Positions 1 through 23,875 of a DNA stretch of 27,323 nt are shown one piece after another. The notes below the pieces were generated by a model. It saw nothing but the letters and a program-made list of their open reading frames with translations. It did not search any database and was not told where the DNA came from. Within the stretch, counting starts at the first letter, position 1; the number at the start of each line of letters is the position of its first letter. The position numbers and the translations under genes are program-made. This DNA comes from a virus (Duplodnaviria > Heunggongvirae > Uroviricota > Caudoviricetes): IMG/VR virus record IMGVR_UViG_2693429713_000014; one strand, written 5' to 3'.

Positions 1-405
1 ATGGATCAGGTCGTTGTTTTTCAAAAGATGTTTGAGCAAGTGAGAAAAGAGCAAAACTTCTCCTGGTTTTATTCAGAATTAAAACATCACCGTATTGCAC
101 ATTACATTTATTATCTGGCTACGGATAACATCAGAATTATTACTCACGATGACACGGTTTTGTTATTAAGAGGAACCAGGAACCTGTTAAAAGTTAGTAC
201 GACCAAGAACCCTGCTAAAATAAAAGAGGCCGCATTGCTTCATATTTGCGGAAAATCTACATTTCGGGAATACTGTTCAACACTAGCAGGCGCGGGCGTT
301 TTCCGGTGGGTTACTGATGTTAATCATAACAAACGCAGTTACTACGCCATTGATAATACGCTTTTATATATTGAAGATGTAGAAAATAATAAACCATTAA
401 TCTAG
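1..405 (+). CDS. YcgX-like hypothetical protein (chromosomal flank)
   Basis: 134-aa ORF from the track, starting at window position 1. AT-rich. Sits next to iraM as ycgX does in K-12; identity assigned by synteny and recalled size, not verified. Confidence 0.55.
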   Translation: MDQVVVFQKMFEQVRKEQNFSWFYSELKHHRIAHYIYYLATDNIRIITHDDTVLLLRGTRNLLKVSTTKNPAKIKEAALLHICGKSTFREYCSTLAGAGVFRWVTDVNHNKRSYYAIDNTLLYIEDVENNKPLI

Positions 406-616
406 CTAAAGTTGGATGCTTAAGAAATGCTTCATAATTCAGTAAGGCATTAGCATAATGGGAATAAAAGTACAGAGACTATCCCTATGGATGATAAATA
501 CTGTCCTTTTATTGCTACCCATAAATAATCACCATGCCAATACTATCAAATTGATATTTGAAATGTGATCACTTGACTTTCTATACGTTATTTTATAACG
601 GTTAATATATTTATAA

Positions 617-664
617 AAACAACGGGTGTGCCATACGCCCGTTTCAATACTTAACGCACATGTG
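617..664. repeat. Terminator-like hairpin element, copy 1 (orphan copy of the icd terminator-like repeat)
   Basis: Stem aacgggtg / cgcccgtt (621-628 and 636-643) with a 7-nt loop and a T-run on the minus strand. About 85% identical over about 45 bp to the element at 1477-1523. Confidence 0.45.
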
Positions 665-1100
665 TTTTGGTTTAGTCATCATCCAGTTATATGTATTTTA
701 GCCAGGAACAGGTTAAACCTTTCCTATATAACTCAAAAATTGAAACCTTATTCTCATGTCATGCTTATATTCATTATTATCGTTATATAAAAAGGCAACC
801 ATAATGTTTAGCAAATTGGCACAAAGTAGCATAAAGGCTATGTTTTAATTACAGGATGTTCAGTCATTTGAATGTATAACATTATAGCTAAACAAATCTA
901 AAACGAAGTGAATAATTTATTGTTTTCACTAAATCTCATTTTGTTTAACATCCATTGAGATTCCTTGCTTTAAATTTTGTTTTATATAAGCAATCGTTTT
1001 AATTAATTTATTTTTTGAAGGGGTAATATACTCATATGCAAAATAAAGAAATGAACATCCAAATGAAGTATATTAAATACCGTGGGATAAGACATAACAA

Positions 1101-1424
1101 ATGAAGTGGATAGTAATTGACACGATAATTCAACCTTCATGCGGCATATCTTTTTCAGCCATATGGGGTAATATGAAAATGATCATCTGGTATCAATCTA
1201 CTATATTTCTCCCTCCTGGCAGTATATTTACACCGGTTAAATCTGGAATTATCCTTAAAGATAAAGAATATCCTATTACTATTTATAACATCGCACCATT
1301 CAACAAGGATTTATGGAGTCTACTCAAAAGCAGTCAAGAGTGTCCTCCAGGAGAAAGAAAAATAACAAATAAATGTTTGCATAATAGTTGCATTATAAAA
1401 ATATGCCCATATGGGCTCAAGTAA
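1101..1424 (+). CDS. iraM: Anti-adaptor protein IraM (RssB inhibitor)
   Basis: 107-aa ORF beginning MKWIVIDT, matching recalled IraM length and sequence. Lies immediately beside the icd 3' fragment as in K-12. Confidence 0.75.
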
Positions 1425-1476
1425 AGGGTTTTATATAAATATGCTCGATATGCTATTAATAGTACCTACATAAATA

Positions 1477-1523
1477 AAACAACGGGCGTGTTATACGCCC
1501 GTTGCAATATTAAACACATGTAG
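1477..1523 (-). terminator. Intrinsic terminator hairpin downstream of the icd 3' fragment (repeat copy 2)
   Basis: Stem aacgggcg / cgcccgtt (1481-1488 and 1496-1503) followed on the minus strand by GTTTTATTTA. Sits just after the icd-fragment stop at 1527-1529. Confidence 0.55.
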
Positions 1524-1526
1524 TGA

Positions 1527-1694
1527 TTACATGTTCTTGATGATCGCATCACCAAATTCTGAACATTTCAGCAGTTTAGCGCCTTCCATCAGACGCTCGA
1601 AGTCATAGGTTACGGTCTTCGCATTGATTGCGCCTTCCATACCTTTAACAATCAGGTCTGCGGCTTCAGTCCAGCCCATATGGCGTAACAGTAG
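1527..1694 (-). pseudogene. icdC: 3' fragment of isocitrate dehydrogenase gene (icdC-like), prophage attachment-site remnant
   Basis: Minus-strand translation gives [54 protein letters not shown]-stop, matching the Icd C-terminus. There is an in-frame stop just upstream at 1695-1697 and no N-terminal part. Confidence 0.85.
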
Positions 1695-2135
1695 TTAGAT
1701 GGTTCATATACAACCGCATGATAAATAAAAATAATCCTATAATTTTATTGTAAATCAACTGGCTTTTATCTTTCCCCTAACCTATTGATTATCAATGTAT
1801 GTTTTTTGGTTTTGATAACCGTTTTAGAGGGCAAAAACAAGTGCCTGTACCTATCAGCCCCTTCACGGCAAAGGGATTTTAAATCATGCGTGTTTTCACA
1901 AACTATCAATGGCTTAACTAAATTTTTCGCCAATAACGTACGCTGTGAGTGAGAGGTGGATATGAAGTTACACACTCCCGGAAAATAAAGAATTGAGCGT
2001 TATCTCATGCTATTAATGAAAAGTGTTTGCTTAATAGATTACATATAACTATGATTCAAGCCCAATTAAAGTCGTGTGTCTTTGGCTTAAATTGGCAAAC
2101 AAACAATCAAGTCAAGAATATAAAGGAACTATTCA

Positions 2136-3104
2136 ATGAATAAGAATTATAAAACGTTTAAACTTGAACTATGGGAGAAGTTTAAGCATCAATGTGCTTA
2201 CTGTGGCACTAAACTTTATGAACCATTGATGGCGGATGTTGATCGTTTTTTCCCAAAATCAAAGTATACTGACTTCCAAGATGCTACAGACAACCTGCTC
2301 ATCGCTTGTAAGGCATGTAGCATGATTAAAAAAGATCAGTTTCCTCTCGATGAAAATGGCAAACCATTACTTCTAAATCCTTTAAATGAAAGTTTTTCAG
2401 AACATATAAAACAAAATAAAAATGGATATTTAGAAGGTTTAACTGAGCGAGGACATGCGACTATAGATATATTACAGTTGAATAGACCTTCATTAATTGA
2501 ACAGCGCATTCTAGATGTTATTGATATGCAGTACTCTGATGATCGAACGCTATCTGAACGAGATGTCTATATGACATTCCAAAATAGTATGCAGAACGCC
2601 ATAAAACTAAATGATGCTCAGTTAAAAATTGATAGCACTTTACAAATACAAATGTCGTATATGCTATATGCCAATACAATAACTTCCTTGGAAACATATT
2701 TATGTGACAGATTTATTTCCCTAATTCATGGTAGCCAAACTAATTTGAGAAATTTTGTTGAAACCTTCAAAGATTACAATACAGAAAAATTCTTACTTTC
2801 TGAATTATTTATAAGGCATGAACAAATAGAGTCTCAAGCGATAGAGTCTATGAAGAGTGTTCTTTATCATAATCTGCCAAAAGTAAGTGGCATGTATCGA
2901 GATACCTTTGGTATTAAATTCCCTGTTTTCACAGAAGTTTATAAAAGCGTGTTAATTAGGCATGACTTAGTTCATCGAGCAGGTAAAACAAAAAATGGTA
3001 ATTTTCATAAGTTAGATTCAGAGTCAGTTAAAGATGTTATCAAAAAATGCTGTGACTTGGTTGAAAAACTAGAAAAAGAGCTTAAAGATTGTGCATCATT
3101 CTAG
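2136..3104 (+). CDS. Hypothetical protein with N-terminal degenerate HNH-like zinc-finger motif and uncharacterised C-terminal domain
   Basis: 322-aa ORF with an AGGA-type RBS. Residues 20-66 read CAYC...DVDRFFP...DNLLIACKAC, i.e. the C-x2-C ... N ... C-x2-C scaffold of HNH with Arg where the catalytic His is expected. AT-rich codon usage. C-terminal region contains R-x4-H (RHDLVH, aa 275-280). Confidence 0.6.
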   Translation: MNKNYKTFKLELWEKFKHQCAYCGTKLYEPLMADVDRFFPKSKYTDFQDATDNLLIACKACSMIKKDQFPLDENGKPLLLNPLNESFSEHIKQNKNGYLEGLTERGHATIDILQLNRPSLIEQRILDVIDMQYSDDRTLSERDVYMTFQNSMQNAIKLNDAQLKIDSTLQIQMSYMLYANTITSLETYLCDRFISLIHGSQTNLRNFVETFKDYNTEKFLLSELFIRHEQIESQAIESMKSVLYHNLPKVSGMYRDTFGIKFPVFTEVYKSVLIRHDLVHRAGKTKNGNFHKLDSESVKDVIKKCCDLVEKLEKELKDCASF

Positions 3105-3286
3105 GTAATTGCCACCAAATCGAAGGTGATCGCGCTTGCGGTCACCAAAAGTAATAAACTATTCATTCCCATTCGATCATCTGAACCAACACAATTTTAT
3201 TTAATAAAGTTGACCTACTTCATTATTTGATACCCATCCAATGTGCGCAAGGGCTGCTTCTGGCACATGGTTACCCTTGATGAGAA

Positions 3287-3417
3287 GGTAGATCACCGCC
3301 ATGGGGTGTCGGGGGCGGAGGTTCAAATCCTCTCGTGCTGACCAAAAATCCTCGAAGAACCAGCCTGTTACGGCTGGTTTTTTTTGCCTGTTTTCTGAAC
3401 GGGGAAGCAATGGGGAA
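3287..3417 (+). repeat. Direct repeat A: 3' ~58 nt of a tRNA-Pro gene (no 5' half) plus downstream terminator and flank
   Basis: 3287-3344 reads ggtag..caccgccatggggtgtcgggggcggaggttcaaatcctctcgtgctgacca: T-arm GGTTCAAATCC, acceptor 3' strand, CCA end. Matches recalled E. coli tRNA-Pro 3' portion. No complementary acceptor 5' strand upstream. Confidence 0.7.
3360..3385 (+). terminator. Rho-independent terminator within repeat A
   Basis: Hairpin ccagcc-tgtta-cggctgg followed by eight T residues. Confidence 0.6.
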
Positions 3418-3607
3418 ATTAGCTTACGGTTGACCCCACTGCGAAAAGCGCAGATTTTTATCAATGGACGTACATAGGGTAGATAAGGCACAATACTGCT
3501 TCAATGTCGTCTGATGGTATTGTAATACTAATTACATCAGATGATTTAACTAGATTAGTTCTTTATAGAAATCATTCTTGAATATTAATTGGCTGACTGA
3601 GGTTTTT

Positions 3608-4393
3608 ATGGATGAAAAATACAGAAGATTTGTTGATGAGGTTGACTTTTCAAGACAATTATTAGGCATAGGGCTCACTTCCCTAAGGAAAGCAAATTTT
3701 GCAAGTAGAGGATTGTATTTTCAAGCATTATCCGGCATCAGTTTAGGATTAGAAAGGCTTATGAAACTTTGCCTTATGCTTGATGATTATAATAAAAATG
3801 GAAAATATACATCACGCAAAAAATTAAGAGATTACGGTCATAACTTAAGCAAGTTATTCAACCTAGTCATTGAGAGAGTTGATTCTCCCTCTGGCTTAAA
3901 TGAAATTCACTACAGAGTGATGGAGTTGTTAACTAATTTTGCAAATTCATCAAGATATAGTAATATTGATTTCATTACTAATGACAACGACAATGATCCC
4001 ATGAAGCAATGGTATAATGAAATCGATAAGAGCATTTACGATGAAATATTAACAAAAAGACAAAAAAATATAATTGATAAAAAATGCGAGCAATACCGAA
4101 GCTATGGTGAAACACTGCCATGCTATGTGCTTGGATATTATGATGAAGACAGAAACCATATAAACTCTGCAGGGGATTTAAATTATTTACTTAAAAGAAG
4201 TGAAATGCTTGCTGGTTATCGCACTTTATTAGTTATTCATATCATAGAATGCATCTATAACATATTAGACTCAATGACAGTTCAAGCAAAAGATAATCAC
4301 TTCCACCATCTTGAATTAGGTCGTTTTTTTGCAACCATCATTTATGGCTCTGATAGAGACAAAATCAATAGAAAAAATTTTATCCGTATGTGA
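3608..4393 (+). CDS. Hypothetical protein (261 aa), AT-rich cargo gene flanked by the tRNA-fragment repeats
   Basis: Track ORF 3578..4393 begins with TTG. The ATG at 3608 has GAGG five nt upstream, so it is the preferred start. No recognisable family motifs. Confidence 0.55.
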   Translation: MDEKYRRFVDEVDFSRQLLGIGLTSLRKANFASRGLYFQALSGISLGLERLMKLCLMLDDYNKNGKYTSRKKLRDYGHNLSKLFNLVIERVDSPSGLNEIHYRVMELLTNFANSSRYSNIDFITNDNDNDPMKQWYNEIDKSIYDEILTKRQKNIIDKKCEQYRSYGETLPCYVLGYYDEDRNHINSAGDLNYLLKRSEMLAGYRTLLVIHIIECIYNILDSMTVQAKDNHFHHLELGRFFATIIYGSDRDKINRKNFIRM

Positions 4394-4471
4394 GACTACG
4401 AAGCGACCGACGAATGATGCTATCAACTTACTGTAGACGCATATAGGCCATCAGAATATTAGCACGACACT

Positions 4472-4588
4472 ATGGGGTGTCGGGGGGCGGAGGTTCAAAT
4501 CCTCTCGTGCCGACCAAAAATCCTCGAAGAACCAGCCTGTTACGGCTGGTTTTTTTGCCTGTTTTCTGAACGGGGAAGCAATGGGGAA
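4472..4588 (+). repeat. Direct repeat B: tRNA-Pro 3' fragment (~45 nt) plus terminator and flank
   Basis: Near-identical to repeat A over about 117 bp (atggggtgtcggggggcggaggttcaaatcctctcgtgccgacca + terminator + tgttttctgaacggggaagcaatgggga). Confidence 0.7.
4532..4556 (+). terminator. Rho-independent terminator within repeat B
   Basis: Same hairpin ccagcctgttacggctgg followed by seven T residues. Confidence 0.6.
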
Positions 4589-4790
4589 TTACAGGGGAAA
4601 AACCCCGTCAAATGTTGCCCCCGTATCGCTAGCACACAATGATTAAGTATCTTTTTCACTTTCGGAATTCATCAATTCACAAAACCATCATTCCGATTTA
4701 CCTTACATGCTCCTTTTAAATCTTTAACGGTGTGCACCACTTTTTCTAACTGCCCTATACTTTCAGTCTGACATACGGCTGGAGGTTTCT

Positions 4791-5459
4791 ATGTGTGGAC
4801 GCTTTTCACAGTCAATGACCCGTGAAGATTATCTTGCCCTTCTCGCTGATGAATCAGAACGCGATATTCCATACGATCCAGAACCCATCGGAAGATTCAA
4901 CGTAGCGCCAGGAACAAAAGTTCTGCTTCTGAGCGAACGTGATGAGCAGTTGCATCTTGATCCAGTTATCTGGGGATACGCCCCCGGTTGGTGGGATAAA
5001 CCGCCGCTCATTAATGCACGGTCTGAAACTGCTGCCACCAGCAGAATGTTTAAACCACTCTGGCAGCATGGCCGCGCAATTTGCTTTGCTGATGGATGGT
5101 ATGAGTGGAAAAAGGAAGGCGACCAAAAACAACCCTACTTTATTCACCGGGCAGACGGTCAGCCGATTTTTATGGCGGCGATCGGCAGCACACCATTCGA
5201 ACGTGGAGATGAAGCAGAAGGTTTCCTGATAGTTACAGCTGCAGCTGACAAAGGACTGGTTGATATTCACGACAGACGACCACTGGTACTGCTACCGGAA
5301 GCCGCGCGTGAATGGATGAGGCAGGATGTTGGAGGGAAAGAAGCAGCGGAAATTGCAGCCGACGGTGTTTTACCGGCTGATAAATTTATATGGCACGCCG
5401 TAACGCGTGCCGTCGGGAATGTGAAAAATCAGGGCGCCGAACTAATAACGCCAATATGA
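4791..5459 (+). CDS. SOS response-associated peptidase (SRAP/YedK family, abasic-site processing protein)
   Basis: 222-aa ORF beginning MCGRF (Cys2 nucleophile typical of SRAP) with GGAGG seven nt upstream. Length and sequence match recalled YedK-type proteins. Confidence 0.8.
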   Translation: MCGRFSQSMTREDYLALLADESERDIPYDPEPIGRFNVAPGTKVLLLSERDEQLHLDPVIWGYAPGWWDKPPLINARSETAATSRMFKPLWQHGRAICFADGWYEWKKEGDQKQPYFIHRADGQPIFMAAIGSTPFERGDEAEGFLIVTAAADKGLVDIHDRRPLVLLPEAAREWMRQDVGGKEAAEIAADGVLPADKFIWHAVTRAVGNVKNQGAELITPI

Positions 5460-5873
<414 letters not shown>

Positions 5874-5875
5874 GG

Positions 5876-6118
5876 CTAAAGTCCTCCGTTTGGATTGAAC
5901 AGCTGAAAGGTTCGGTTCTCGCCTTCCTGCGTTGATACATCGCGGAATGTTGTCACATAACATTCTATCCAATCGTTGGCCTGCTTCATCGTCCAGTGCC
6001 AGTTAACCTTACCCAGTTCCTGGACAAACCGCTGTGTGGTGACAGTCTTCCGGCCATTCGGTTCTCGCTGTATCGAAGCATGCCAGGCTATTTCAATATC
6101 GCTACGTTGTGGCATCAT
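5876..6118 (-). CDS. Small hypothetical protein (81 aa) immediately upstream of the UmuD'-like gene
   Basis: ATGATG at 6118-6113 preceded by aagaagggg RBS. Stop at 5876-5878 lies 2 nt before the UmuD'-like start, suggesting an operon. Function unknown. Confidence 0.45.
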   Translation of the reverse strand: MMPQRSDIEIAWHASIQREPNGRKTVTTQRFVQELGKVNWHWTMKQANDWIECYVTTFRDVSTQEGENRTFQLFNPNGGL

Positions 6119-6192: not shown

Positions 6193-6435
6193 ATGTTCGT
6201 GGAACTCGTTTATGACAAAAGGAATTTTGATGGCCTGCCCGGTGCAAAAGATATCATTCTGGGCGAATTGACTAAGAGGGTTCACCGGGTCTTCCCTGAT
6301 GCTGATGTCCGGGTAAAACCGATGATGACACTGCCGGCGATCAACACTGACGCCAGCAAGCATGAGAAGGAACAGATAAGCCGTACTGTTCAGGAAATGT
6401 TTGAAAAGGCTGATATGTGGCTGGTTTCAGATTAA
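6193..6435 (+). CDS. DinI-family DNA-damage-inducible protein
   Basis: 80-aa ORF ending ...MFEKADMWLVSD, resembling the DinI C-terminus (...ESADDWFVSE). RBS aagagg upstream. Confidence 0.75.
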   Translation: MFVELVYDKRNFDGLPGAKDIILGELTKRVHRVFPDADVRVKPMMTLPAINTDASKHEKEQISRTVQEMFEKADMWLVSD

Positions 6436-6563: not shown

Positions 6564-7115
6564 TCAACGCCGCGCAGGAAATTTTTTGTATAGCGTCGAC
6601 ACCCCTACATCATAAATTATAGCCACACGTTTTCTAGACTCACCTGCAGCAATCAACCTTCCAGCCTGAGCCCACTCTTCTGCGGTTAACTTTGGTCGTC
6701 TGCCGCCGATCCGACCATCTTCGCGCGCAGCAGCTAAGCCAGCCCGTGTTCGCTCAACAATAAGCTCTCTTTCCATCTCGGCAAGCGCCCCCATGACATG
6801 AAAGAAAAAGCGCCCCATTGGTGTTGAGGTATCTATACTGTCGGTCAGGCTACGGAAGTTTACCCCTCGCTCCCTCATTTCTTCGACCAGCACGACAAGA
6901 TGCCGCATGCTGCGACCGAGGCGATCCAGCTTCCATACCACCAGCGTATCGCCTTCTGATAGCGTCCTGAGCACTTTTTTTAATCCTGGTCTGTCGGACA
7001 CCTTACCGCTGATCTTATCTTCGAAAATCAGTTCACATCCTGCACACTCGAGCGCGTTTCTTTGCAATGCTGTGTTCTGGTCATTTGTTGATACGCGAAC
7101 ATAGCCAATAAGCAT
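6564..7115 (-). CDS. pin: Serine recombinase, Pin/Gin/Hin-family DNA invertase
   Basis: N-terminus MLIGYVRVSTNDQN with the catalytic Ser motif; closely resembles e14 Pin. Start set at the internal Met (7115) with a GGGG RBS rather than the track start at 7151. Confidence 0.9.
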   Translation of the reverse strand: MLIGYVRVSTNDQNTALQRNALECAGCELIFEDKISGKVSDRPGLKKVLRTLSEGDTLVVWKLDRLGRSMRHLVVLVEEMRERGVNFRSLTDSIDTSTPMGRFFFHVMGALAEMERELIVERTRAGLAAAREDGRIGGRRPKLTAEEWAQAGRLIAAGESRKRVAIIYDVGVSTLYKKFPARR

Positions 7116-7170
7116 GGTAGATCCCCCTGACAAAAGCAGGAATGATGCCATTTGCTCGTTATTTCTGCAT

Positions 7171-7200
7171 TTTCATAAACGTTGGTTTGGGAGAAGGTGC
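7171..7200. repeat. Invertase crossover site, left (inverted repeat partner of 8911-8940)
   Basis: tttcataaacgttggtttgggagaaggtgc. The 19-bp core ttggtttgggagaaggtgc (7182-7200) is a perfect inverted repeat of 8911-8929, and 25 of 30 positions match over the extended site. Confidence 0.7.
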
Positions 7201-7477
7201 TAACTGGGTTATGTTACCTGGAGGAATGATAATTCAGCGTGTTTATCTTGGATTTCCTATTGGCACTAATGTAAGACATATAACTTTCCCCCGGTCGTTT
7301 ACAACAACGAACTATTCCATCTCAATTAACTGGAATGATATCGGTACTGTAACAACTGAAACACAATCACCAGCAAATGTGGCGGTTGTTCATCAAACAA
7401 AATCATTAACAGGGGCCAGCATCTGGCAGGCAGGTCCCGGGGGATTTAATGTGGACATTATAGCGGTGGGGTATTGA
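7182..7477 (+). CDS. Alternative tail-fibre C-terminal cassette (silent in this orientation; no own start)
   Basis: Reading frame continues through the crossover core, encoding GLGEGA as in the expressed fibre. Followed directly by an alternative Tfa gene. Mirrors the Sv' arrangement of Mu G / e14 P segments. Confidence 0.55.
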
Positions 7478-7478
7478 T

Positions 7479-7907
7479 ATGTACGTATGGAGCGCTAAAG
7501 CAAATGGCTTTTTCCCCATATCGGAGAAAGAAAAATTTGAGGCATCAGGTCTGTGGCCTGATGATGGTGTAATAGTCAGTGAGGAAGAACATAAAAAGTT
7601 ATTTATGGATATTCCACCAGGAAAACAGATTGGAACACTGAATGGAAAACCAGCACTGATAGATATTCCTCAGCCGACCAAAAAGGAATTAATAGCTATT
7701 GCTGAAGTTAAAAAATCCCAATTACGGGAAAAGGCTGACAGTGAAATATCCTGGCGTCAGGATGCTGTTGATGCTGATATCGCAACTGATGAAGAAGCTA
7801 CAACTCTCACCCAATGGAAGAAATACCGTGTGCTGCTGATGCGTGTTGATACGTCAACAGCACCCGATATTGAATGGCCTACGCCTCCGGCAGTTCAGGC
7901 CAGATGA
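7479..7907 (+). CDS. Tail fibre assembly protein (alternative copy, Tfa')
   Basis: 142-aa ORF with a Tfa-like C-terminus (...WKKYRVLLMRVDTSTAPDIEWPTPP) similar to the minus-strand Tfa. Confidence 0.75.
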   Translation: MYVWSAKANGFFPISEKEKFEASGLWPDDGVIVSEEEHKKLFMDIPPGKQIGTLNGKPALIDIPQPTKKELIAIAEVKKSQLREKADSEISWRQDAVDADIATDEEATTLTQWKKYRVLLMRVDTSTAPDIEWPTPPAVQAR

Positions 7908-8472
7908 CATCCGGCGCGGTGCTGGTATCTGTTGCCGTCACCGCGTCAATGTAATCCAGCACGGCGTTAAGTCGGGTTGTTTCTGCCTGAGTCAGTTTCC
8001 GTCCGGCCTGTAATTTCAGCTGAATCAGACTAATGGAAGCCATTGCTGCATCAATCAGTGACTGGCGCTGTGCTTCTGCCGCGTCTACTGCGGCACTGTG
8101 TTGTGCCTCAGTGTCTGTCACCCATTTCTCACCATCCCATTTATCGTATGGCGTTAACGGTGAAAGCGTGACATAACCGTCTTTGATGGCACCGATATAA
8201 TCCACTGTAACAGCTGCACCATTTTCGATTGAGTAAACAGTCTCATTGCGATGGTCTTCCTCATGGCTCCATCCCTTACCTGTAAATACCGTCACTCTTC
8301 CCAGAATGTTTTCGCCCGGGTCAATACCAGTTGAACAGGCGGGCATACTTACGCCAGTATTAATATATTCATCAGACCAGCCCGTATACTCAGATGTTTC
8401 AGCATCATAATAAAAACAACGCATATCGCCCGGCACTGTAGCCAGCCCATTTTCATCAAAAACAGGTTTCAT
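7879..8472 (-). CDS. Tail fibre assembly protein (Tfa, currently expressed orientation)
   Basis: 197-aa ORF; C-terminus ...DTSTAPDVIWPELPEA. Start overlaps the fibre gene stop. Confidence 0.75.
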   Translation of the reverse strand: MKPVFDENGLATVPGDMRCFYYDAETSEYTGWSDEYINTGVSMPACSTGIDPGENILGRVTVFTGKGWSHEEDHRNETVYSIENGAAVTVDYIGAIKDGYVTLSPLTPYDKWDGEKWVTDTEAQHSAAVDAAEAQRQSLIDAAMASISLIQLKLQAGRKLTQAETTRLNAVLDYIDAVTATDTSTAPDVIWPELPEA

Positions 8473-9218
8473 TATTTAGCCCTCACCAGAAAGTTAAATG
8501 CAATATTTCGCGGTCTGACAGCAACAAAATTCACACCATCACCCACAGAGTTACTGGTGAAATTAAATCGTGAAAATCCTGGCTGATTTCCGGCGATGCC
8601 ATCATGAAAGTTAATTGCGTGTCCCGCACCTTCGCCTATATTCCCGGCAAACTGAGAAAAGTTTGTAGCTGCCTGCCAACTTAATAATTCGCGACCACCA
8701 TCTGCACCTCGCCCGTCATCCCAGACACGAATGAAATCACCGCGTGCGTCAGGTAATGCCAACGCCGGAAACACTTTCGCCAGCACAGGGTAATCAGTGG
8801 CAGAAAATTTCGCCCCGTTGAACTTCAAAAACACCATACTGGACCAGCTGTCGATTACAGTATTTGGCATTGCAGCGGACGCCCAGAAGAACGGAACACC
8901 AATAGCTGGAGCACCTTCTCCCAAACCAAGGTTTTCGAGAGCCGTTTTCACCGTGCCATCCGATTTGATATCGCCAAACGGATTCTTGCGGCTTAACAGC
9001 AGCGCACGAAGCGCTGTAAGCAGCTGGTCATGCCGCCCCTTCTCCAGGCTGGCACCGGATACCTCCACAACACTGCAAAGTTCCTCCTGCAACATGTCAA
9101 AGTAGTCATCATCCAGATCGGTGGCAGGTGTGCCGGTCTGGGGGTTACCACGGGTAAAACCGTTCTTACCCGCGCCGAACTTATCCTTCTGCGCGGTTTT
9201 CGTGTCTATACGATGCAT
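8472..9218 (-). CDS. Tail fibre protein (constant N-terminal part plus variable C-terminal part inside the invertible segment)
   Basis: 248-aa ORF. The crossover site lies within it at 8911-8940, encoding LGLGEGA. Confidence 0.7.
8911..8940. repeat. Invertase crossover site, right
   Basis: gcaccttctcccaaaccaaggttttcgaga, the reverse complement of the left site core. Confidence 0.7.
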
Positions 9219-9221
9219 GGA

Positions 9222-9806
9222 TTACTCCGGATATTTAAAAATTACGTAGGTATGCGACGGGCAGAGTTTGTTAAGCACACACTCGACAACGGTGTCGCCC
9301 CAGATACGCAGTGCGGAATCACAGGGATCGCCACATGTCATCCAGGTGGTGTTGGTGGCGGCTGGCATGTTGACCTGCCAGTAATACCGCCATTCCGGCG
9401 CATTCACCGCGTCAGTACAGGCCGATGAGCAGGTGAACGTGCTTTTGTCGTATCGCGTGATGGTGGCGTCTGGTCTGCCCAGGGCAGCAAGCTGTGCAAG
9501 GTAAAAATCCTCATTGATGCCGCCCGCCAGGTTAACCTTCGCATCCAGTCGTTGCTGACGCTGGCGAAGGGTCTGTGTCCCTGCGGGAATACATTCATCC
9601 GGCAGGCCGCACAGACGCTCCCAGCGATTTATCAGTTCGGTGGTGGTGCGCGGATCCAGCTCCCGCATCAGGGCATCCGCACGCTGATGAACGCGGGTTA
9701 ATGACGGTGCCGCACCGGCAATCGCCGGATCGCTGGCTGACCACGCCGGACCGGGGGGCAACAGTGCCGACAACAGATGGATGTAATCATCGTTTGTCAC
9801 GTCCAT
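9222..9806 (-). CDS. Mu gp48-like / YmfQ-like (DUF2313) baseplate or tail protein
   Basis: 194-aa ORF placed between the baseplate J-like gene and the tail fibre; family assigned from recalled similarity to e14 YmfQ. Confidence 0.65.
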
Positions 9807-10855
9807 GAAATCGTCCCCAGTACCGCCAGTTCATTTTTTGCAATGGAGATATTGTCCGCCGGTGCAAGCAACTGATGGCTGTATTCCCCGTTCGCACCGG
9901 AAATCGCCTCACTGATACGCGACACCTTCAGTTCTCCCTGCGGATAACCATCACGCAGCAGGAACGAACGCAACTCGGCGGTGATGGCAGCCCGTATTTC
10001 CGGTGTGTCCGGCGTCACGCGGATATGAAAATCCACTTTATGCGCCACCGGCCTGAATACATACAAATCAGAGCCTGCCACCGGGGCCAGTGGCTCAATG
10101 TGTTGTCTTGCCGCCGTTTCCGTTGATTCTTCCGGAATGGGATTAATCAGGTCACTGCTGGCAATCATCACACCGACAGTCCCCGTTCCCATCCAGTGGC
10201 GGTATGTCCATGCACGGGTAATGCCGGGCACTTCTTTAGCCCAGACTACATAGTCCCCGTCAGCCCCGCCCTGAGGCGTCCAGTAATACCGCTCAATGAC
10301 GCGGGCGCGCCACGTTTCCAGCTCTTCAGTATCAAATCCACCTGTCAGAGTGTCTGCCACGCCGGAAGACGGCAGACCATTCACCGGCGTGACCAGGATT
10401 AATGACGTACCGTCGTCAGCGTTACCGACCGCTCCTGCACTTGAGCAGGCGATCGGCACGCGCAGGACACCACCGGCGCTGGTTGCATCGGCAGTTGCCG
10501 TGTACTGAACCAGGTCATCGCGCTGAATAACACTCCCGGCGATCACCTTCAGGCCATCGCTGACACCTTCCCAGCGCATATACCCGCTGGCAGCCGTGGC
10601 CCCCTTGCGCGGACACCGTTTCATCGCAGCATGTCGCGCCAGCCAGGACTCATCGCACAGGTCAGGCAGCATGTTCATTGCCAGATAATCGATGTAACCG
10701 TAAACCGTATGCAGCGCCGCCGCATACACCTTTGCCCGCACGTCTTCATCCATGCGCCGGAGCGTGTCGCTGACGTCCAGCCTGGCGAATAAATCGTTAC
10801 GGAGCATACTGATATTTTCTGCCAACGTCGGGCGCTGAAATTCACTGTCCGCCAT
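9797..10855 (-). CDS. Baseplate J-like protein (Mu gp47 family)
   Basis: 352-aa ORF in the conserved gp45-gp46-gp47-gp48 order. Confidence 0.75.
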
Positions 10856-11270
10856 GCGTTATCGCACTCCACAGATCATCAAAAGAAATCATTACCGGTC
10901 CGTCACGACGCCAGAGAGTGATACTGTTACCCAGTTCATTAATCCCGGTGCGGCGGATATCCAGATCAATACGGGACACCACACCGTCATCAATCATCCA
11001 TTGCAGGCATTCGCGGATATACCCCCTTACCGTCTGCACCAGCTGATTGGTCAGTTTGCCGCGCTGAAGCAGCCACAGCCGGGAGCCGTAACGGTCATTC
11101 TGTACCGCAGGCCAGGTATCCCCCCACCATCCCATCGGGACGTCGGCATTGTCATCAGGCTCCGCCCGCCGCCAGGTGAACAGGGAAATCACCACGGCGC
11201 GGGTCAGCGGATCCAGCGGTGCGCTGGCGCAGGTGCGTTTACCGTTCACCGTCAGCCAAAGTTCCATCAT
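10842..11270 (-). CDS. Baseplate protein (Mu gp46-like)
   Basis: 142-aa ORF between the spike and J-like genes, with overlapping start and stop. Confidence 0.65.
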   Translation of the reverse strand: MMELWLTVNGKRTCASAPLDPLTRAVVISLFTWRRAEPDDNADVPMGWWGDTWPAVQNDRYGSRLWLLQRGKLTNQLVQTVRGYIRECLQWMIDDGVVSRIDLDIRRTGINELGNSITLWRRDGPVMISFDDLWSAITHGGQ

Positions 11271-11815
11271 GCCTCCATCGCTTTATCCGGTTTGTCGGTG
11301 TTACTGCCCTGACCGTTCTCTCTGTGACGATGGCCGTTATAGGCAAGCCGCATCGCTGACATGGTGGTGCCGCCGGAGTCGCACAGGTCTTTCACCTGTC
11401 CGGTCACTTCCAGGTCCATTTCAAAACGTGCTCTGGGCGCATTGCGAAACGTGATCGTTTTACCTGCACCGTCCACCACGATCCCCTCCCGGGTCAGCGT
11501 CACAGACTGCCCCTGATCGTCATAGACAGCCACCTCACCCGTCTGCAGCCCTTTCAGGCGGTAGCGCCGGTCCGACACCGTAACAACCACCGCATGAGAA
11601 CGGTCGCCATCCGGAAACAACACCACCGCTTCCGCACCGCTGTTTGCCCTTGCGGTAAAACCGTAGGGTTCAAGATGTTCAACCCCGGCTTTGGGTTCAC
11701 CGGCAATCAGGGACACATCCACGGTCTGACATTTCGTGGCGGCACTGATGCTTTTCACCACTGCCCGCCCAATCAGGCCGAGAAGTTGTCGCTGCATGGC
11801 TTCAATCGTCCTCAT
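11267..11815 (-). CDS. Baseplate assembly / spike protein V (Mu gp45-like)
   Basis: 182-aa ORF at the conserved position after the hub gene. Confidence 0.7.
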   Translation of the reverse strand: MRTIEAMQRQLLGLIGRAVVKSISAATKCQTVDVSLIAGEPKAGVEHLEPYGFTARANSGAEAVVLFPDGDRSHAVVVTVSDRRYRLKGLQTGEVAVYDDQGQSVTLTREGIVVDGAGKTITFRNAPRARFEMDLEVTGQVKDLCDSGGTTMSAMRLAYNGHRHRENGQGSNTDKPDKAMEA

Positions 11816-12925
11816 CAGAACGGGTCCTCCTGTACTCTGGCTTTTTTCTTTTTCCGCGCGCCGGGGTCTTCAGGTTCAGGCAGATAAGCATCAGGCGGGC
11901 CGACACGGATTTCCGTCAGGGTGCCGTTCTGGTCCTGAGTAAACGTGACTTCCGAAACAAGCAGTTCGGTATTGTCAAAACCACAGACCGGATCAAAGAC
12001 AATCACCCGCTGGTTGGGTTGCCACAGCGTACCGTTACCCTGTCGCCAGCCCTGCACCACATAGGTGGTTTCATCCGTCCGCGCCGCCCGTTGCCGGGCT
12101 TCAAAGTCCGCACGGGCAATACAGCCTGCCCCCGTAGCCTGCCCTGTCTGCCTGATATACATCGGACGGTAACGGGCAATAAATGCGTCCTCTGTGCGGG
12201 CCCGCAGCGCGGTGGTGGTGGCCTCACCGAAATCATCGTCGTTTCCGGCACGCTGCCCCGCCACCTGGTAAACTGAAAACCGATCCCGGATACTCTTCTC
12301 CGTATCACAGGAAAGGATGTTTTCCCCAAGTACCAGCGCGGTATGTGCCCGCGTTGAGCCAATACCACCAATCACCAGCCTGCCGTGCGGGTCGTCATAA
12401 GCCAGCGCCTGCTGCTGACCGAGTATTTTGTTGATCACCTCAATCACCGTTTCACCGTGATCAGGCTGGACATCCGGAATAACACCCGACGGCGCATCGC
12501 TGTTCACCACCTCAATGCCGAAAGGCGCAGCAAGCGCCTGCGCAATCTGTACCAGCGATCGTCCGTTAAACTGTGTCGGTTCGGCTGCACAGTCAATCAG
12601 GTCAGCAGTCAGACTACGTCCGGCAATACCGGTGCTGACCGAACGGGCATCGTAACGAACGGGGGTCGCCTCCACCCAGCCGGTGATCACCAGCTCATAA
12701 CCAATCAGCACTTCCACTTTTGAACCATTTTTAATGCGCGGCTGAAGCGTGGTGATACCCTCATCTCCCGGCCANNNNNNNNNNNNNNNNNNNNNNNNNN
12801 NNNNNNNNNNNNNNNNNNNNNNNNNNNNNNNNNNNNNCCAGCCGTTCAATACCGGCACCGATGCGCACCGATGTCCAGCCATTCCACTCCCGGCCATTTA
12901 CCCGTAGCGTGACGTTATCGTTCAT
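11815..12925 (-). CDS. Baseplate hub protein (Mu gp44 / P2 gpD-like), interrupted by an assembly gap
   Basis: N-terminal frame from the ATG at 12925-12923 (MNDNVTLRVNGREWNGW...) overlaps the upstream stop in an ATGA arrangement. The frame after the N-run differs from it. Confidence 0.7.
12775..12837. other. Run of 63 N (assembly gap or masked bases)
   Basis: Directly visible. Confidence 1.
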
Positions 12926-14250
12926 TGCACTGGCACCTTCAGAGGGATCACCGGCACAAAGCCGGGATGCGTAATGGCATTACGCCGGATAATGTCCGCG
13001 TCACGCGCCGCGTTATCAAACCAGGTCGCCGCCAGCACCAGCGCGGGTAAAACCTCATCCGGTGTGCGCTGAATGATCCGTGCAGACTGTTCAAGGCGCG
13101 TGTTGATATCCGCATTCAGATCTGCTTTCACCCGGCGCAGCGCCAGAAACAGCGCATCGCTGGTTGTACGGGACAACTCCTTATCAATTGCCGTATTCAG
13201 TGTGTCGCGAATGTCAGTCAGTTCTTCCCACGTCGGCAGGTCAACCGTGTTTTTCACCGCCGGTGCATTGTTCAGTGCCGGATGCGTGACGGAAGGCCAG
13301 CCAGTGCTCTGCGCGGGTGTTGTTGCCTGCCCCACTGCGGCATTCTGCATCACCGCGGAAGTTGTTGGCGCAGGCAATCGGGTGACGGCATACGCCGCTT
13401 CGCTGATTGCGGTCGTACGAAGGGTGCTGGCAACCACGTTACGCTGCTGCGTCGCCGTGGCGGTGGTTTTACTGTCCGTTTTCCAGACGCCGCGCGGTTG
13501 CAGATCGCTGCCGAGGCTGACACCGGAAAGCGTTTTGATCATGGTGACCAGGTCGCTGGCGTTACCATAAAGGCGTTTCCCGGTACGCCACATTTTCTGC
13601 ACCTGCTCAACGAAGTTTTTGCCTGACGATGGCGGAGGCAGAAGTACCGAGATATCCCCCTGCAACAGTCTGGCGGCATCCGATACGGCAGAATCCACCA
13701 CTTTCATCGCATCAGAAACATACCCAAGCATTGTGCTGGCATTACCGACGACGTCGTTCTGCACAAAATCCGCCACGCCATCGATACTGAAACCACTGAA
13801 ACTGTCACTGATGCAGTCATCCAGTGCAGAACAGGATGACATCAGCGTCTGCGCCGTCGCCGCACCTGAAGTGGGGTAAGAGAGTTCTCCCGCTTCGACA
13901 AACTTCAGGTCAAAGCGGACAATACGCCCTTCACTCTTCGATGTGCTGACCCGAACTTCTCCGTCAACACAGACTTTCAGCTCACCGTAAGTCGGATGGA
14001 CAAGCGTGCCGGGACCGGGTTTATTCAGCGCGTCAATCAGGCGATCGCGCTGGTCAAAGCAGTCATCTCCCACCACATAAGCTGTGATGGACGGGCGGAA
14101 AGTGATTTTCCCCAGGTCTTCGGTATAGGGTTTGTCGCGGTTCGGGTATTCGTGCGTTTCCACACGACGACCGGTTCCCGCACTTTCTTCTTCAACCTTA
14201 AACGGCACACCACGAAATGACGCGTCCTGAAGTCTGTCTTTCCACGTCAT
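12922..14250 (-). CDS. DNA circulation protein (Mu gp43-like)
   Basis: N-terminus MTWKDRLQDASFRGVPF from the start at 14250 with GGAG six nt upstream; the track ORF starts further 5' at 14292. Confidence 0.7.
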   Translation of the reverse strand: MTWKDRLQDASFRGVPFKVEEESAGTGRRVETHEYPNRDKPYTEDLGKITFRPSITAYVVGDDCFDQRDRLIDALNKPGPGTLVHPTYGELKVCVDGEVRVSTSKSEGRIVRFDLKFVEAGELSYPTSGAATAQTLMSSCSALDDCISDSFSGFSIDGVADFVQNDVVGNASTMLGYVSDAMKVVDSAVSDAARLLQGDISVLLPPPSSGKNFVEQVQKMWRTGKRLYGNASDLVTMIKTLSGVSLGSDLQPRGVWKTDSKTTATATQQRNVVASTLRTTAISEAAYAVTRLPAPTTSAVMQNAAVGQATTPAQSTGWPSVTHPALNNAPAVKNTVDLPTWEELTDIRDTLNTAIDKELSRTTSDALFLALRRVKADLNADINTRLEQSARIIQRTPDEVLPALVLAATWFDNAARDADIIRRNAITHPGFVPVIPLKVPVQ

Positions 14251-14310
14251 ATAAACTCCGTACATAAAAAATCCCACCGGAGTGGGACTCATTAACAGAT
14301 TAATTTTTCA

Positions 14311-16146
14311 TTACCTGCCAAAGCGCGTATAGCCAACATCATGGCTGACATCAAAACCGCTGGATCGCGTTTCCATAACCCGCATACCCGGAGGCGAATT
14401 CACAAAAGAGACCTTGATCTCACCATCAACTTTTGGCGCAGAAGCTTTGTTAATCATGAAGGGATTCGGGCCTGTGGCACCGGAGGCGTTGTTTGACTGA
14501 GCCGGATCCACCGCCGGATAAGGTGTGTATCCCCGCGCCGGTATTCCCGTCCCATAAGCATCATAAGCACCCGCGCCCCACTGCGCAGAGTTAATGGCAT
14601 CGACCGTGTCACCGGAACTGTCGGTAAACCACTCAATAATTGGCTTCAGCTTGTCCCACATATCCTGAAACCACTTAACAACCGGCCCCCAGTTATTGAT
14701 CACCATCCCCAGCGGCGACCAGGCAAAAACTTTCTTAAGGAGTTCCCAGCCGGCCTCAAAATAAGGACCAATGGTTTCCCAGAGTTTCTTAAAATAAGGT
14801 CCGACAACATCCCAGTTAGTGATAATTAATCCCGCAGCCAGGGCTATCGCCGTCGCAATCATGCCAATCGGCGTCATCGACATGATCCTGCTGACAATAC
14901 TGATGGCACCGCCAACGCCCATCAATCCCAGTTTCAGAATCGCAAGACCGGCAGCAAGCCCGACGACGCCGCGAATAACCCGGGGATTTTCATCCGCAAA
15001 CTTCGTGAATTTCTCCCCCAACTCCCCCAGCCATTGCGTGATATTTTTAGCGTCACCAGAAAATGCGCCGCCAATAGCTGCAAGACCGTTAGTTGCGGTC
15101 CCCGTCATTGCCTCCCACAGGTTGGACAGCGTACCAAGCTGTGCCTGAACACGTTTATTCAGGCTGGCCTGTTTATTCATCTTCTGCTGGATCTGATCGT
15201 AACCATCCTTCCCTTTATCGATCAGAGCATTGACCACCTGAAGGGTTTCGGCATCATCACCAAATATTGCCTTAAGTACACCTGTTCGCTTAACGTCGGT
15301 CAGTTTTCGCAGCTTTGCCAGTTGCCTGAACATGTTATCAAGACCGCCAAAACTCCCTTTGCCGTCAGTAAAATCGAGCTGCACTCCGAGTTTCTGGCGG
15401 GCCATAACTTTATTAACGTCCCTGATTTTCTTAACGCTTAATCCGGACTGGATAACTTTTCGCAGGGCATTACCTGCCGACTCCCCGTTCATCCCCATCT
15501 GATCCATCATGACGCTGATGGGGGCAAGGCTCTGTGCAGCCTGAAGACCGTCCTTGTTCACCATCTTCAGAACAGAACTGGTTTTAGTGAAGAAGGACAA
15601 CATGTTGGTATCGTCAACGCCCAGATAAAACGCCTTCTGGATAGTGTCGAACAGCCCCATCATGTCTTCTGACGCCGTTCCGGTAGCATCCTGCATCTTT
15701 GCGGCAAACTCGGCAGCCGCTTCCGGTGTTTTTTTCAGTTGTACCGCAAGATAAGCTGTCGCTTTACCCACACCGCCAAGAATGTTTTCTGCCGGGATCC
15801 CCTGACGCACCAGCATCTGCATCATGTTCTGGAAATCAGCCGTTGTACCGGGTAGCTGGTTACCCAGGCCAATAGCCAGTTTATTGATGTCCTGAAAGCG
15901 CTTTCCGACCTCACCGTTCGCATCCATCATGGCAACTTTCAGCCCGGTGGCGGCGTTTTCCTGATCGGCATAAGATTTCAGGGAAAGCGTCAGACCCGCA
16001 GCCAGTCCGCCACCAAGCGCCAGCCCACCCTGTGACGCTTCTTCCGCCTGGCGTTTAAATCCCCGGATTTTCTTTTGCATTTTCGACAGCGCGGGAGAAA
16101 GCCTGTCGACACCGGTGATCAACGCCTTAAGCTCAAATTCAGCCAT
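14311..16146 (-). CDS. Tail tape measure protein
   Basis: 611-aa ORF, Ala/Gly-rich with a hydrophobic central segment, downstream of the frameshift chaperone. Confidence 0.85.
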   Translation of the reverse strand: MAEFELKALITGVDRLSPALSKMQKKIRGFKRQAEEASQGGLALGGGLAAGLTLSLKSYADQENAATGLKVAMMDANGEVGKRFQDINKLAIGLGNQLPGTTADFQNMMQMLVRQGIPAENILGGVGKATAYLAVQLKKTPEAAAEFAAKMQDATGTASEDMMGLFDTIQKAFYLGVDDTNMLSFFTKTSSVLKMVNKDGLQAAQSLAPISVMMDQMGMNGESAGNALRKVIQSGLSVKKIRDVNKVMARQKLGVQLDFTDGKGSFGGLDNMFRQLAKLRKLTDVKRTGVLKAIFGDDAETLQVVNALIDKGKDGYDQIQQKMNKQASLNKRVQAQLGTLSNLWEAMTGTATNGLAAIGGAFSGDAKNITQWLGELGEKFTKFADENPRVIRGVVGLAAGLAILKLGLMGVGGAISIVSRIMSMTPIGMIATAIALAAGLIITNWDVVGPYFKKLWETIGPYFEAGWELLKKVFAWSPLGMVINNWGPVVKWFQDMWDKLKPIIEWFTDSSGDTVDAINSAQWGAGAYDAYGTGIPARGYTPYPAVDPAQSNNASGATGPNPFMINKASAPKVDGEIKVSFVNSPPGMRVMETRSSGFDVSHDVGYTRFGR

Positions 16147-16306
16147 GTGTGCGTTTCTCCTGCTCTATCCTGTTTGCCTGACTGACCAGTAAGGGAATTT
16201 CACTGATCGGCATATTCAGCAATTCGAAGGGATTAATGCGCCAGTAGCTGGCGCAGTCAAAGAAGCGATCAGTGAGGTATTCAGCCGTCAGGCCTGGAGG
16301 AAAAAA
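16139..16306 (-). CDS. Tail assembly chaperone -1 frameshift extension (long product, with 16288..16557)
   Basis: Overlapping -1 frame ORF. Slippery site T TTT TTC lies at plus-strand 16300-16306, in the X XXY YYZ register of the upstream frame. Confidence 0.6.
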   Translation of the reverse strand, partial: FFPPGLTAEYLTDRFFDCASYWRINPFELLNMPISEIPLLVSQANRIEQEKRTHG

Positions 16307-16557
16307 CCAGCCACAAGCCACGCCGCTGCATTCAGGTCTGCCGGAGACATCTGGTCGACAGAGTTTTGCGGCACTTTCGCCAGCCGCACAATGTATTTCG
16401 ACACCACATGCGCCAGAAGTCTGACGGACTCATCCTGATTCATCTGGTAGGGATACCCCAGCTCGCGGACATCTTTCCCGGTGGGCTCATCAAACTCCAG
16501 TACGGAGAGTGTCTCGCCATGAGCAGTGATCGGTTTCTTTAACTCAAGCTCTTTCAT
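16288..16557 (-). CDS. Tail assembly chaperone (short, unshifted product)
   Basis: 89-aa ORF between the tail tube and tape measure genes, ending just after a slippery heptamer. Confidence 0.7.
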   Translation of the reverse strand: MKELELKKPITAHGETLSVLEFDEPTGKDVRELGYPYQMNQDESVRLLAHVVSKYIVRLAKVPQNSVDQMSPADLNAAAWLVAGFFLQA

Positions 16558-16913
16558 TACTGGTAATCCCCTTCTTCACCGTGGAACTCAAGATCAACCG
16601 TGCCTTCTTCGGCATTATGGTTCGCTTCGCCATGCAGCCAGGCAGACGACAGTACATAGACCTGACCGTTCGCCAGCTCGGCAGTGATGGTCATCTCATC
16701 AGACGAGGTGATTTTGCTCACCGGAAAATTCTTCGGCACCTTGAAGGTCCCTTTGACATAAGGTGCACGGTGAGTTTCCTTGCGGTCCACTGAACCATCC
16801 AGACCGATGATGTCATCGTTAACCGTTTTGTTCATAGGCACCTCAATGCCGCCGGTCAGCGATAGCTGCTGACCGTCAATTTTGAAATAACAGGTTCCCC
16901 CGATACGGGCCAT
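16557..16913 (-). CDS. Tail tube protein
   Basis: 118-aa ORF immediately after the sheath gene. Confidence 0.75.
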   Translation of the reverse strand: MARIGGTCYFKIDGQQLSLTGGIEVPMNKTVNDDIIGLDGSVDRKETHRAPYVKGTFKVPKNFPVSKITSSDEMTITAELANGQVYVLSSAWLHGEANHNAEEGTVDLEFHGEEGDYQ

Positions 16914-18563: not shown

Positions 18564-18571
18564 GAAGATTC

Positions 18572-20340: not shown

Positions 20341-20342
20341 GC

Positions 20343-20543: not shown

Positions 20544-20592
20544 GATTCTTCACCCGTCAGAACAGGGGGCGCGGTTCCGCGCCCATGAATGA

Positions 20593-21798: not shown

Positions 21799-21812
21799 CG
21801 TATTTCTCCTGA

Positions 21813-23864: not shown

Positions 23865-23875
23865 AATTACCTCAG

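Follow-up and report, generated by a model that had tools for sequence, protein, structure and literature searches.

The 27,323-nucleotide (nt) stretch of DNA analysed here (IMG/VR virus record IMGVR_UViG_2693429713_000014; the whole of it is referred to as the window) carries an e14-like prophage of Escherichia coli that has a Mu-type baseplate and a Pin invertase and is integrated at icd. At the end of the prophage where the displaced 3′ end of icd, icdC, marks the attR side, an island of about 3 kb (1695-4700) separates this fragment from a group of SOS genes and holds two sizeable open reading frames, ORF-A and ORF-B, together with two copies of a tRNA gene fragment (Table 1). An earlier, sequence-only reading of the window had described both ORFs and had called the island far more AT-rich than the structural genes. 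The composition bears this out, with a GC content of 0.354 across the island (0.323 in ORF-A and 0.319 in ORF-B) against 0.546 in the prophage body (7152-26200). However, the host flank that carries ycgX and iraM (1-1526) is AT-rich to the same degree (0.324), meaning that the prophage junction is not where the AT-rich zone starts and that the contrast is with the phage genes rather than with the chromosome.

In the K-12 annotation, the corresponding genes are ordered pinE-mcrA-icdC-iraM-ymgK-ymgL-ycgX. The window thus presents the same junction read in the opposite direction, and its stretch from icdC to Pin is the slot that holds mcrA in e14, as had been proposed. The whole island is complete in 8 of 5,426 complete E. 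coli genomes, where RefSeq labels ORF-A as ‘HNH endonuclease’ and ORF-B as ‘hypothetical protein’.

Table 1. Features at the icd end of the prophage (positions refer to the window; aa, amino acids; CDS, coding sequence; att, attachment site).
Feature	Position	Strand	Description and basis
ycgX	1-405		E. coli host gene
iraM	1101-1424		E. coli host gene
icdC, displaced icd 3′ end (50 codons)	1527-1679	-	Translation is the Icd C-terminus; partial isocitrate dehydrogenase in RefSeq strain C1; K-12 icdC at the equivalent place
Shared arm beside icdC	1695-1936	.	Conserved in icd-integrated prophages (blastn)
ORF-A module	1942-3268	+	Gene with 194 nt conserved upstream and 164 nt conserved downstream; 85.7% identity over 1,329 nt to a Serratia P4-like satellite (L003/L006)
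ORF-A CDS	2136-3104	+	322 aa; HNH N-terminal (about aa 1-135), RiboL-PSP-type HEPN C-terminal (about aa 140-322)
Codon 37 of ORF-A	2244-2246	+	CGT, Arg at the catalytic HNH His position (EHF motif); alignments A1 and A5
HEPN Rx4H motif of ORF-A	2958-2975	+	R275-H-D-L-V-H280; R275, H276, D277, V279, H280 and R281 invariant in 21 sequences
proL′ copy 1	3301-3417	+	tRNA-Pro (GGG) 3′ half, terminator (~3355-3392) and downstream sequence; att relic; direct repeats D1/D2/D7, aligned to the real proL of strain 100181
ORF-B module	3531-4382	+	Gene with 77 nt conserved upstream; 76.5% identity over 852 nt to a Klebsiella michiganensis P2-like prophage (L016)
ORF-B CDS	3608-4393	+	261 aa, all-helical, predicted HEPN-like fold; conserved E11, E49-R50 (nt 3752-3757), K53, H78 (3839-3841), R116-Y117-x-N119 (3953-3964)
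proL′ copy 2	4472-4588	+	With terminator (4526-4555); colinear with proL-integrated relatives from here on
SRAP	4791-5459	+	Pfam SRAP 8e-51; RefSeq strain C1
UmuD-like S24 peptidase	5460-5972	-	Pfam Peptidase_S24 3e-7
DinI	6193-6435	+	RefSeq strain C1
Pin invertase	6564-7151	-	RefSeq strain C1

Anatomy of the island

The arm with which the island begins is shared with other prophages at icd: by blastn, positions 1401-1936 are 91% identical to strain PCP07014 and positions 1401-1825 are 84% identical to e14 of K-12, and the 215-nt arm at 1695-1909 was found in just 10 of the 5,426 genomes. Small ORFs at 1766-1975 come without supporting homology and were rejected as genes.

The arm is followed by the ORF-A module, a block of homology that extends beyond the gene on both sides. 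Its left boundary is identical in four independent contexts (window 1942-2135; L003 7808-8000; L043 and L044 about 4810-5000), which suggests that the conserved ~190 nt upstream of ORF-A may move with the gene, either as a fixed promoter or leader or as a preferred recombination joint. The ORF-B module forms a second block with boundaries of its own, and it is this block that lies between the tRNA fragments. These are direct repeats of 117 nt each, 99-100% identical, and comprise the 3′ half of a tRNA-Pro gene (proL) from the anticodon loop to the CCA, followed by a hairpin/T-run terminator and some 40 nt of further sequence; the tRNA-fragment repeats that the sequence-only reading had reported are therefore real. 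ARAGORN found no intact tRNA, neither Rfam nor ARAGORN assigned a tRNA or other family to the repeats, and their recognition as proL comes solely from BLAST matches to annotated genomes. A minus-strand ORF at 3201-3491 crosses the first tRNA relic and was likewise rejected as a gene, as it has no supporting homology.

Positions 3287-3417 are 92% identical to proL, and positions 4472-5000 are 95% identical to, and colinear with, the stretch from proL to SRAP of strain 100181, where the genuine proL gene is the site of a related prophage with Pin (proL-SRAP-umuC-umuD-dinI...). In strain UTAK-5 (L026, 1-5485), a satellite-like element encoding a primase, SSB, a ClpP-like protease/major capsid fusion and a small terminase lies in tandem with the prophage, with a degenerate proL fragment between the two. 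Tandem integration at proL as seen in UTAK-5 accounts for two att relics around foreign DNA, and in the window the foreign piece between the repeats, which are spaced 1.17 kb apart, is ORF-B alone. In other species, no proL′-type repeats flank the B homologues.

Viewed together, the separate homology blocks and the repeats make the island a stack of att arm, ORF-A module, proL′, ORF-B module, proL′ and SOS module. As a copy of the proL terminator follows each gene, ORF-A and ORF-B are separate transcription units. In E. coli, the two always occur together, every copy belonging to one prophage lineage, and both genes are intact in 24 of the 24 contigs read. Outside E. coli, homologues of A and B never co-occur in the contexts examined, and hhalign detected no homology between the two proteins. 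The lack of co-occurrence elsewhere, the unrelated sequences, the individual homology boundaries and the terminator between the genes show that ORF-A and ORF-B are independently acquired single-gene modules. The sequence-only reading had taken the island as one locus, and on this point it has to be revised: two unrelated single-gene modules are split by an att relic with its terminator.

Domains and families of the two proteins

The N-terminal part of ORF-A (aa 1-135/160) matches PtuB-type HNH hidden Markov models of PADLOC at E-values down to 1e-23, and it also matches solved PtuB structures (retron I-A, Ec78, Septu), both in fold (Foldseek) and in sequence profile (PDB). Curated cut-offs are nevertheless missed widely, with 32.6 bits against NCBIfam NF041761 PtuB (cut-off 150) and 17.3 against TIGR02646 (cut-off 52.15), so that the relatedness holds at the level of the domain only. 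The C-terminal domain is all-helical and is matched by phrog_29321 at aa 144-316 (3e-19). Pfam HEPN_RiboL-PSP (PF18735) recognises 9 of the 21 family members (best E-value 5.7e-9); for the window copy itself, the E-value is 0.009 and the score 16.4 bits, below the gathering score of 28.4. Anantharaman et al. 2013 (PMC3710099) listed the Ribo L-PSP-HEPN family and noted repeated fusions of HEPN domains with HNH and other DNases.

Position 37 of ORF-A is His in 42 of 47 sequences of alignments A1 and A5; it is Arg in the window, P0001 and P0006, all of them from E. coli, and Gln in the distant P0013 and P0045. The family motif EHF.PKS hence reads DRF.PKS in the window and the other E. coli copies, whereas the closest orthologues (80-83% identity), from Serratia, Proteus and Enterobacter, retain His37. 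This position aligns with H57 of the PtuB protein of Retron-Eco7, in which an H57A substitution abolishes defence (PMC12673091). In addition, the metal-site Asn is replaced by Ser in the window, at a position that is variable across the family. Together, H37R and the Asn-to-Ser change indicate that the HNH domain of E. coli ORF-A is probably catalytically dead. Even so, the ratio of nonsynonymous to synonymous substitution rates (dN/dS) against Serratia is 0.20 overall, with 0.19 for the HNH and 0.20 for the HEPN half, i.e. the whole gene is under purifying selection. Since the HNH half is still constrained, it probably serves in nucleic-acid binding or regulation only, and the HEPN domain would probably be the effector of the protein. 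In the orthologues that retain the His, the HNH domain may act on DNA or, by analogy with the PtuB-type HNH of Retron-Eco7, which targets tRNA-Tyr (PMC12673091), on tRNA.

The start codon of ORF-B is the ATG at 3608, which is served by a GAGG ribosome-binding site and is also the RefSeq start; the mechanical ORF begins at a TTG at 3578. Searches of Pfam, NCBIfam, PHROGs, PADLOC and PDB gave no sequence match to ORF-B, and Foldseek with the ORF-B model found nothing among the BFVD structures. Its relatives behave in the same way, in that 45 of them have no Pfam or PADLOC family either; one homologue, P0077, has a precomputed PF05168 match. A profile search of 1.84 billion cluster representatives recovered 1,135 relatives at E <= 1e-3, of which 651 reach E <= 1e-10; their length is about 270 aa throughout. 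When clustered at 50% identity, the family comprises about 1,100 clusters. Homologues close to ORF-B (40-81% identity) are patchily distributed in Enterobacterales, Aeromonas and Pasteurellaceae, and a profile scan of the genome contigs with ORF-B gave one locus only. With a dN/dS of 0.08 against Klebsiella, ORF-B, too, is under purifying selection.

The predicted structure of ORF-B contains the four-helix up-down core of the HEPN fold. What it lacks is the canonical Rx4-6H motif: the third long helix is followed by R116-Y-S-N119 with no His within 4-6 residues, and H78 is the sole conserved His of the protein. Residues conserved across the superfamily are E11, G47, E49-R50, K53, H78, R116-Y117-x-N119 and W135. 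Owing to this motif site without a His, ORF-B is best labelled as having a HEPN-like predicted fold with a non-canonical site, short of established membership of the HEPN nucleases. The earlier statement that neither protein could be placed needs correcting: ORF-A has PtuB-like HNH and RiboL-PSP-type HEPN domains, and ORF-B has a HEPN-like predicted fold and is part of a large family, one that no Pfam or PADLOC model covers.

Cargo contexts and candidate explanations

In Pin-bearing relatives, the slot between Pin and the att site has conserved flanks and variable, unrelated content, as a handful of examples illustrates. In e14 of K-12, at icd, it contains mcrA; in PCP07014, also at icd, humD′-gtrABC; and in ZJ3920, at ssrA, genes for a GIY-YIG protein and a DUF262 protein, the latter belonging to a group described as GmrSD/BrxU-like (10.1101/2024.01.29.577857). 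At proL, in strains 100181 (L002, 7109-8244) and UTAK-5 (L026, 9069-10624), a HipA-family kinase and a DUF3037 protein are encoded beyond SRAP-umuCD-dinI, an architecture validated as DS-6 by DefensePredictor (PMC13092281). These examples support the idea, raised in the sequence-only reading, of a variable, defence-rich slot. The 262-aa protein of the ZJ3920 slot was considered as a B homologue and rejected.

The further suggestion that cargo slots at prophage ends are hot-spots for anti-phage genes finds backing in the whereabouts of homologues of both proteins. For A, the settings are a Serratia P4-like satellite, with the gene placed after that for the primase, i.e. at the opposite end from the psu-int hotspot of P4-like satellites (Rousset et al., PMC9122126); a small integrative element with a SIR2 gene close by; a Pantoea lambdoid prophage, with the gene flanked by the cI region and int; a Vibrio superintegron cassette among Shedu-type and ParE/Phd cassettes; and a place adjoining a gene for a NACHT protein. 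For B, they include two P2-like prophages, one of Klebsiella with the gene between gpS and gpV and one of Proteus with the gene behind ogr at the prophage end; a place after a gene for an AAA_15/21 ATPase; and a Gallibacterium type I restriction–modification (R-M) operon, where the gene sits between hsdS and hsdR and overlaps hsdS by 4 nt. Others are found after aspS or beside LacI/MFS genes. In Streptomyces (L030, 4302-7837), a B homologue directly follows genes for an OLD-TOPRIM ATPase and a UvrD-like protein, beside a serine recombinase gene, and a distant homologue (L061, 130-2433) lies between a UvrD fragment and Abi_alpha. A B-family gene thus stands directly 3′ of a UvrD-like helicase gene in two distant lineages, which may reflect a recurrent association, and the Streptomyces pair is Gabija-like. 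Behind B, the two P2-like prophages of Klebsiella and Proteus differ, in keeping with a single-gene module: each has a convergent gene without a Pfam family (286 aa, L016 9014-9874, minus strand; 234 aa, L019 8856-9560, minus strand), but the two share no relationship and probably constitute further unknown cargo.

On balance, we lean towards reading the island as two stacked, independently acquired single-gene defence candidates that would act by abortive infection via HEPN-type RNA cleavage. The data establish how the island is built, which domains its proteins contain, that the modules are independent, that the slot varies and that selection is purifying; a role in defence, an RNase activity and the trigger are inferred. 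The att-proximal slot of an e14-like prophage at icd would have accreted two separately gained cargo modules, the first a stand-alone nuclease that combines a PtuB-like HNH with a RiboL-PSP-type HEPN domain and the second a likewise stand-alone protein whose predicted fold is HEPN-like and whose large family lacks annotation. The proL′ copies that bracket the second module would stem from an ancestor with tandem integration at tRNA-Pro; the SOS-gene end of this ancestor (proL′-SRAP-umuD-dinI-pin) would later have been joined onto an icd-targeting prophage. Each protein would be a HEPN RNase kept inactive until infection, upon which cleavage of tRNA, rRNA or mRNA would halt growth; in E. coli ORF-A, the HNH domain, deprived of its general-base His by H37R, would be left with binding or regulation and the HEPN domain would deliver the effect.

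A bolder, and clearly more tentative, proposal concerns ORF-B alone. Its family might be a widespread, unnamed group of single-protein immune effectors that ranges from Enterobacterales to Streptomyces and shares the HEPN-like fold with a non-canonical site (R116-x-x-N119, E49/R50 and the distal H78). Like PrrC, these proteins might be checked by, or guard, neighbouring type I R-M systems or Gabija-type ATPases/helicases, the E. coli copy being a minimal att-flanked cassette.

Several other explanations have to be weighed against the defence reading. A rather unlikely one is that the genes encode nuclease toxins of a selfish or addiction type, or that they serve the biology of the prophage itself, such as stabilisation of the element or RNA or DNA processing at induction. 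HEPN domains are common toxins of toxin–antitoxin systems (PMC3710099), Phd/TacA-type antitoxin genes adjoin a distant B homologue, the Vibrio integron cassettes with A occur among ParE/Phd cassettes, and some B homologues stand alone among housekeeping genes. Yet, neither family has a conserved antitoxin-like partner (minimal nucleotidyltransferase [MNT] or small upstream ORF) in any context, no MNT antitoxin ORF adjoining ORF-A or ORF-B in the window or any of their homologues elsewhere, and the translational coupling of one B homologue within a type I R-M operon also speaks against this explanation. A role in the phage life cycle is further disfavoured by the placement of the genes in a cargo slot far from the replication and packaging genes.

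Somewhat less likely still is that the island represents decaying debris whose genes no longer function in E. coli. Such a view would be in line with the tRNA fragments in place of a tRNA, with the eroded SOS module, which lacks umuC and whose umuD-like gene contains a (GCTG)9 repeat and is annotated as frameshifted in C1, with the loss of a catalytic HNH residue through H37R and with the rarity of the island. Against decay, both ORFs are full length in every copy read, their dN/dS values are low and the HNH half of ORF-A is not relaxed; moreover, neither the HEPN motif of ORF-A nor any conserved residue of ORF-B has been lost, and the upstream regions are conserved.

Improbable, in turn, is a function of the two proteins in counter-defence or in competition between elements, for instance as nucleases that target satellites, plasmids or host defence RNAs. 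The carriers are phages and satellites that compete mutually, and specific nucleic acids can be targets of HNH and HEPN domains, but neither protein resembles a known anti-defence family in the libraries searched, and neighbours such as the R-M operon, the Gabija-like genes, Abi_alpha and NACHT fit defence better. Finally, we consider it very improbable that the two genes constitute a single system, for example of toxin and partner or of sensor and effector, in which neither works without the other, since their adjacency on the same strand and constant company in E. coli go back to a single prophage lineage, while elsewhere, in the contexts examined, the families live apart and in the window each module has its own homology boundaries, with the tRNA terminator and att relic in between.

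Defence cargo at prophage ends, HEPN effectors and HNH–HEPN fusions are all of kinds already known, and the island is a good candidate rather than a surprise. In the searchable literature, we found no described phenotype for either family and nothing specific on HNH–HEPN, RiboL-PSP or e14/icd hotspots, and the RefSeq accessions of ORF-A and ORF-B are absent from the DefensePredictor tables. If either gene protects against phages, a compact single-gene effector will be added to the defence repertoire, and if this is true for ORF-B, a large family that is not covered by Pfam, PADLOC or PDB will gain a function and a name. For ORF-A, nature has already set up a test: one HNH–HEPN protein occurs with the catalytic His in Serratia, Proteus and Enterobacter and without it in E. 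coli, and a comparison of the two forms can tell apart what each nuclease domain contributes. As a cloning target, the island is sound and cheap, and both the natural H37R variant and the extent of the unannotated B family add somewhat to its appeal. More generally, the locus illustrates how cargo builds up at a prophage end, as terminator-insulated modules stacked between att relics, and documents an e14-type slot that swaps McrA, DS-6, DUF262 and ORF-A/ORF-B.

The surroundings of the island show several further features. On the SOS-gene side, the SRAP stop codon (5459) abuts the UmuD-like gene (5460), umuC, which lies between SRAP and umuD in the proL-integrated relatives, being absent. A perfect (GCTG)x9 repeat at 5773-5808 within the UmuD-like ORF encodes QPAS repeats; given that the C1 copy of this gene is annotated as frameshifted, the tetranucleotide repeat may act as an on/off switch through slippage or may reflect decay. 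In strain C1, IS421 also splits the SRAP gene (L001, 12097-14114), with ORF-A and ORF-B still intact, and an IS200/IS605 transposase gene occupies the place of iraM (L001, 8179-8637). In several E. coli strains (L007-L009, L011 and L012, positions 1-5806), prophages are arranged in tandem at icd, with a second, lambdoid prophage (KilR, Gam, RecT, YqaJ, Xis, Int) directly left of the icd fragment. Within the Pin-invertible segment, a sub-threshold Rfam match to IS009 (47.8 bits, gathering score 117, E 8.6e-9) falls in the tail-fibre assembly region at 7675-7858.

Comparison with known systems

With PtuB of Septu and of the type I-A retrons (Retron-Eco7/Ec78), ORF-A shares, besides the PADLOC match, the likeness of its N-terminus to structures 9n69_F, 9u9y_H and 8eea_G and the motif CxxC...EHF.PKS...N...CxxC.N..K common to both families. 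It differs from PtuB in being fused to a HEPN domain, in the Arg that replaces the catalytic His of the E. coli copy and in falling below the curated cut-offs. No gene for a PtuA ABC/SMC-type ATPase or a reverse transcriptase is present at 1695-4790 or beside the A homologues; ORF-A was rejected as a member of Septu, as PtuA is lacking and the curated PtuB and TIGR02646 thresholds are missed. The C-terminal domain resembles the RiboL-PSP HEPN family, a defence-associated domain (PF18735; a PD-T4-2_B component in the DefensePredictor tables), in its invariant Rx4H motif, its all-helical fold and the Pfam matches of its relatives, with HNH rather than endoRNase L-PSP or GNAT as the fusion partner. 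In PADLOC, this C-terminal domain alone gave no match to PD-T4-2.

McrA of e14, a type IV methyl-directed restriction enzyme, occupies the equivalent slot in a related prophage and also has an HNH motif. In McrA, however, this motif is C-terminal and in ORF-A N-terminal, and ORF-A has a HEPN domain and no recognisable 5-methylcytosine-binding domain; with a BLASTP E-value of 0.15 against K-12 McrA, confined to the HNH motif, ORF-A was rejected as a McrA homologue.

For both genes, single-gene HEPN defences offer a precedent, among them HEC-08 (10.1101/2024.01.29.577857), the V. cholerae cassette Esos (10.1101/2024.07.02.601686) and DS-11 (PMC13092281). ORF-B has no sequence match to HEC-08, DS-11, AbiV, AbiJ/AbiD/AbiF or ApeA, and differs from single-protein HEPN defences of this kind in lacking Rx4-6H and in its own set of conserved residues (E11, E49-R50, K53, H78 and R116-Y-x-N119).

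A second comparison is with PrrC and RloC, which are anticodon nucleases embedded in type I R-M operons. The Gallibacterium B homologue between hsdS and hsdR stands where PrrC is located in the prr locus. In contrast to PrrC and RloC, ORF-B has no ABC-ATPase domain and no sequence similarity to them, and it is not beside an R-M system in E. coli. Genes inside R-M operons are often defences (10.1101/2024.01.29.577857).

The architecture of the island, finally, recalls the CIME elements of Streptococcus. These att-flanked, integrase-less remnants arise from tandem (accretion) integration. Similarly, ORF-B lies between two tRNA att relics with no integrase in between, and UTAK-5 has a tandem array at proL; what sets the window apart from a CIME-type array at its original site is that its own array now resides at icd, not at proL.

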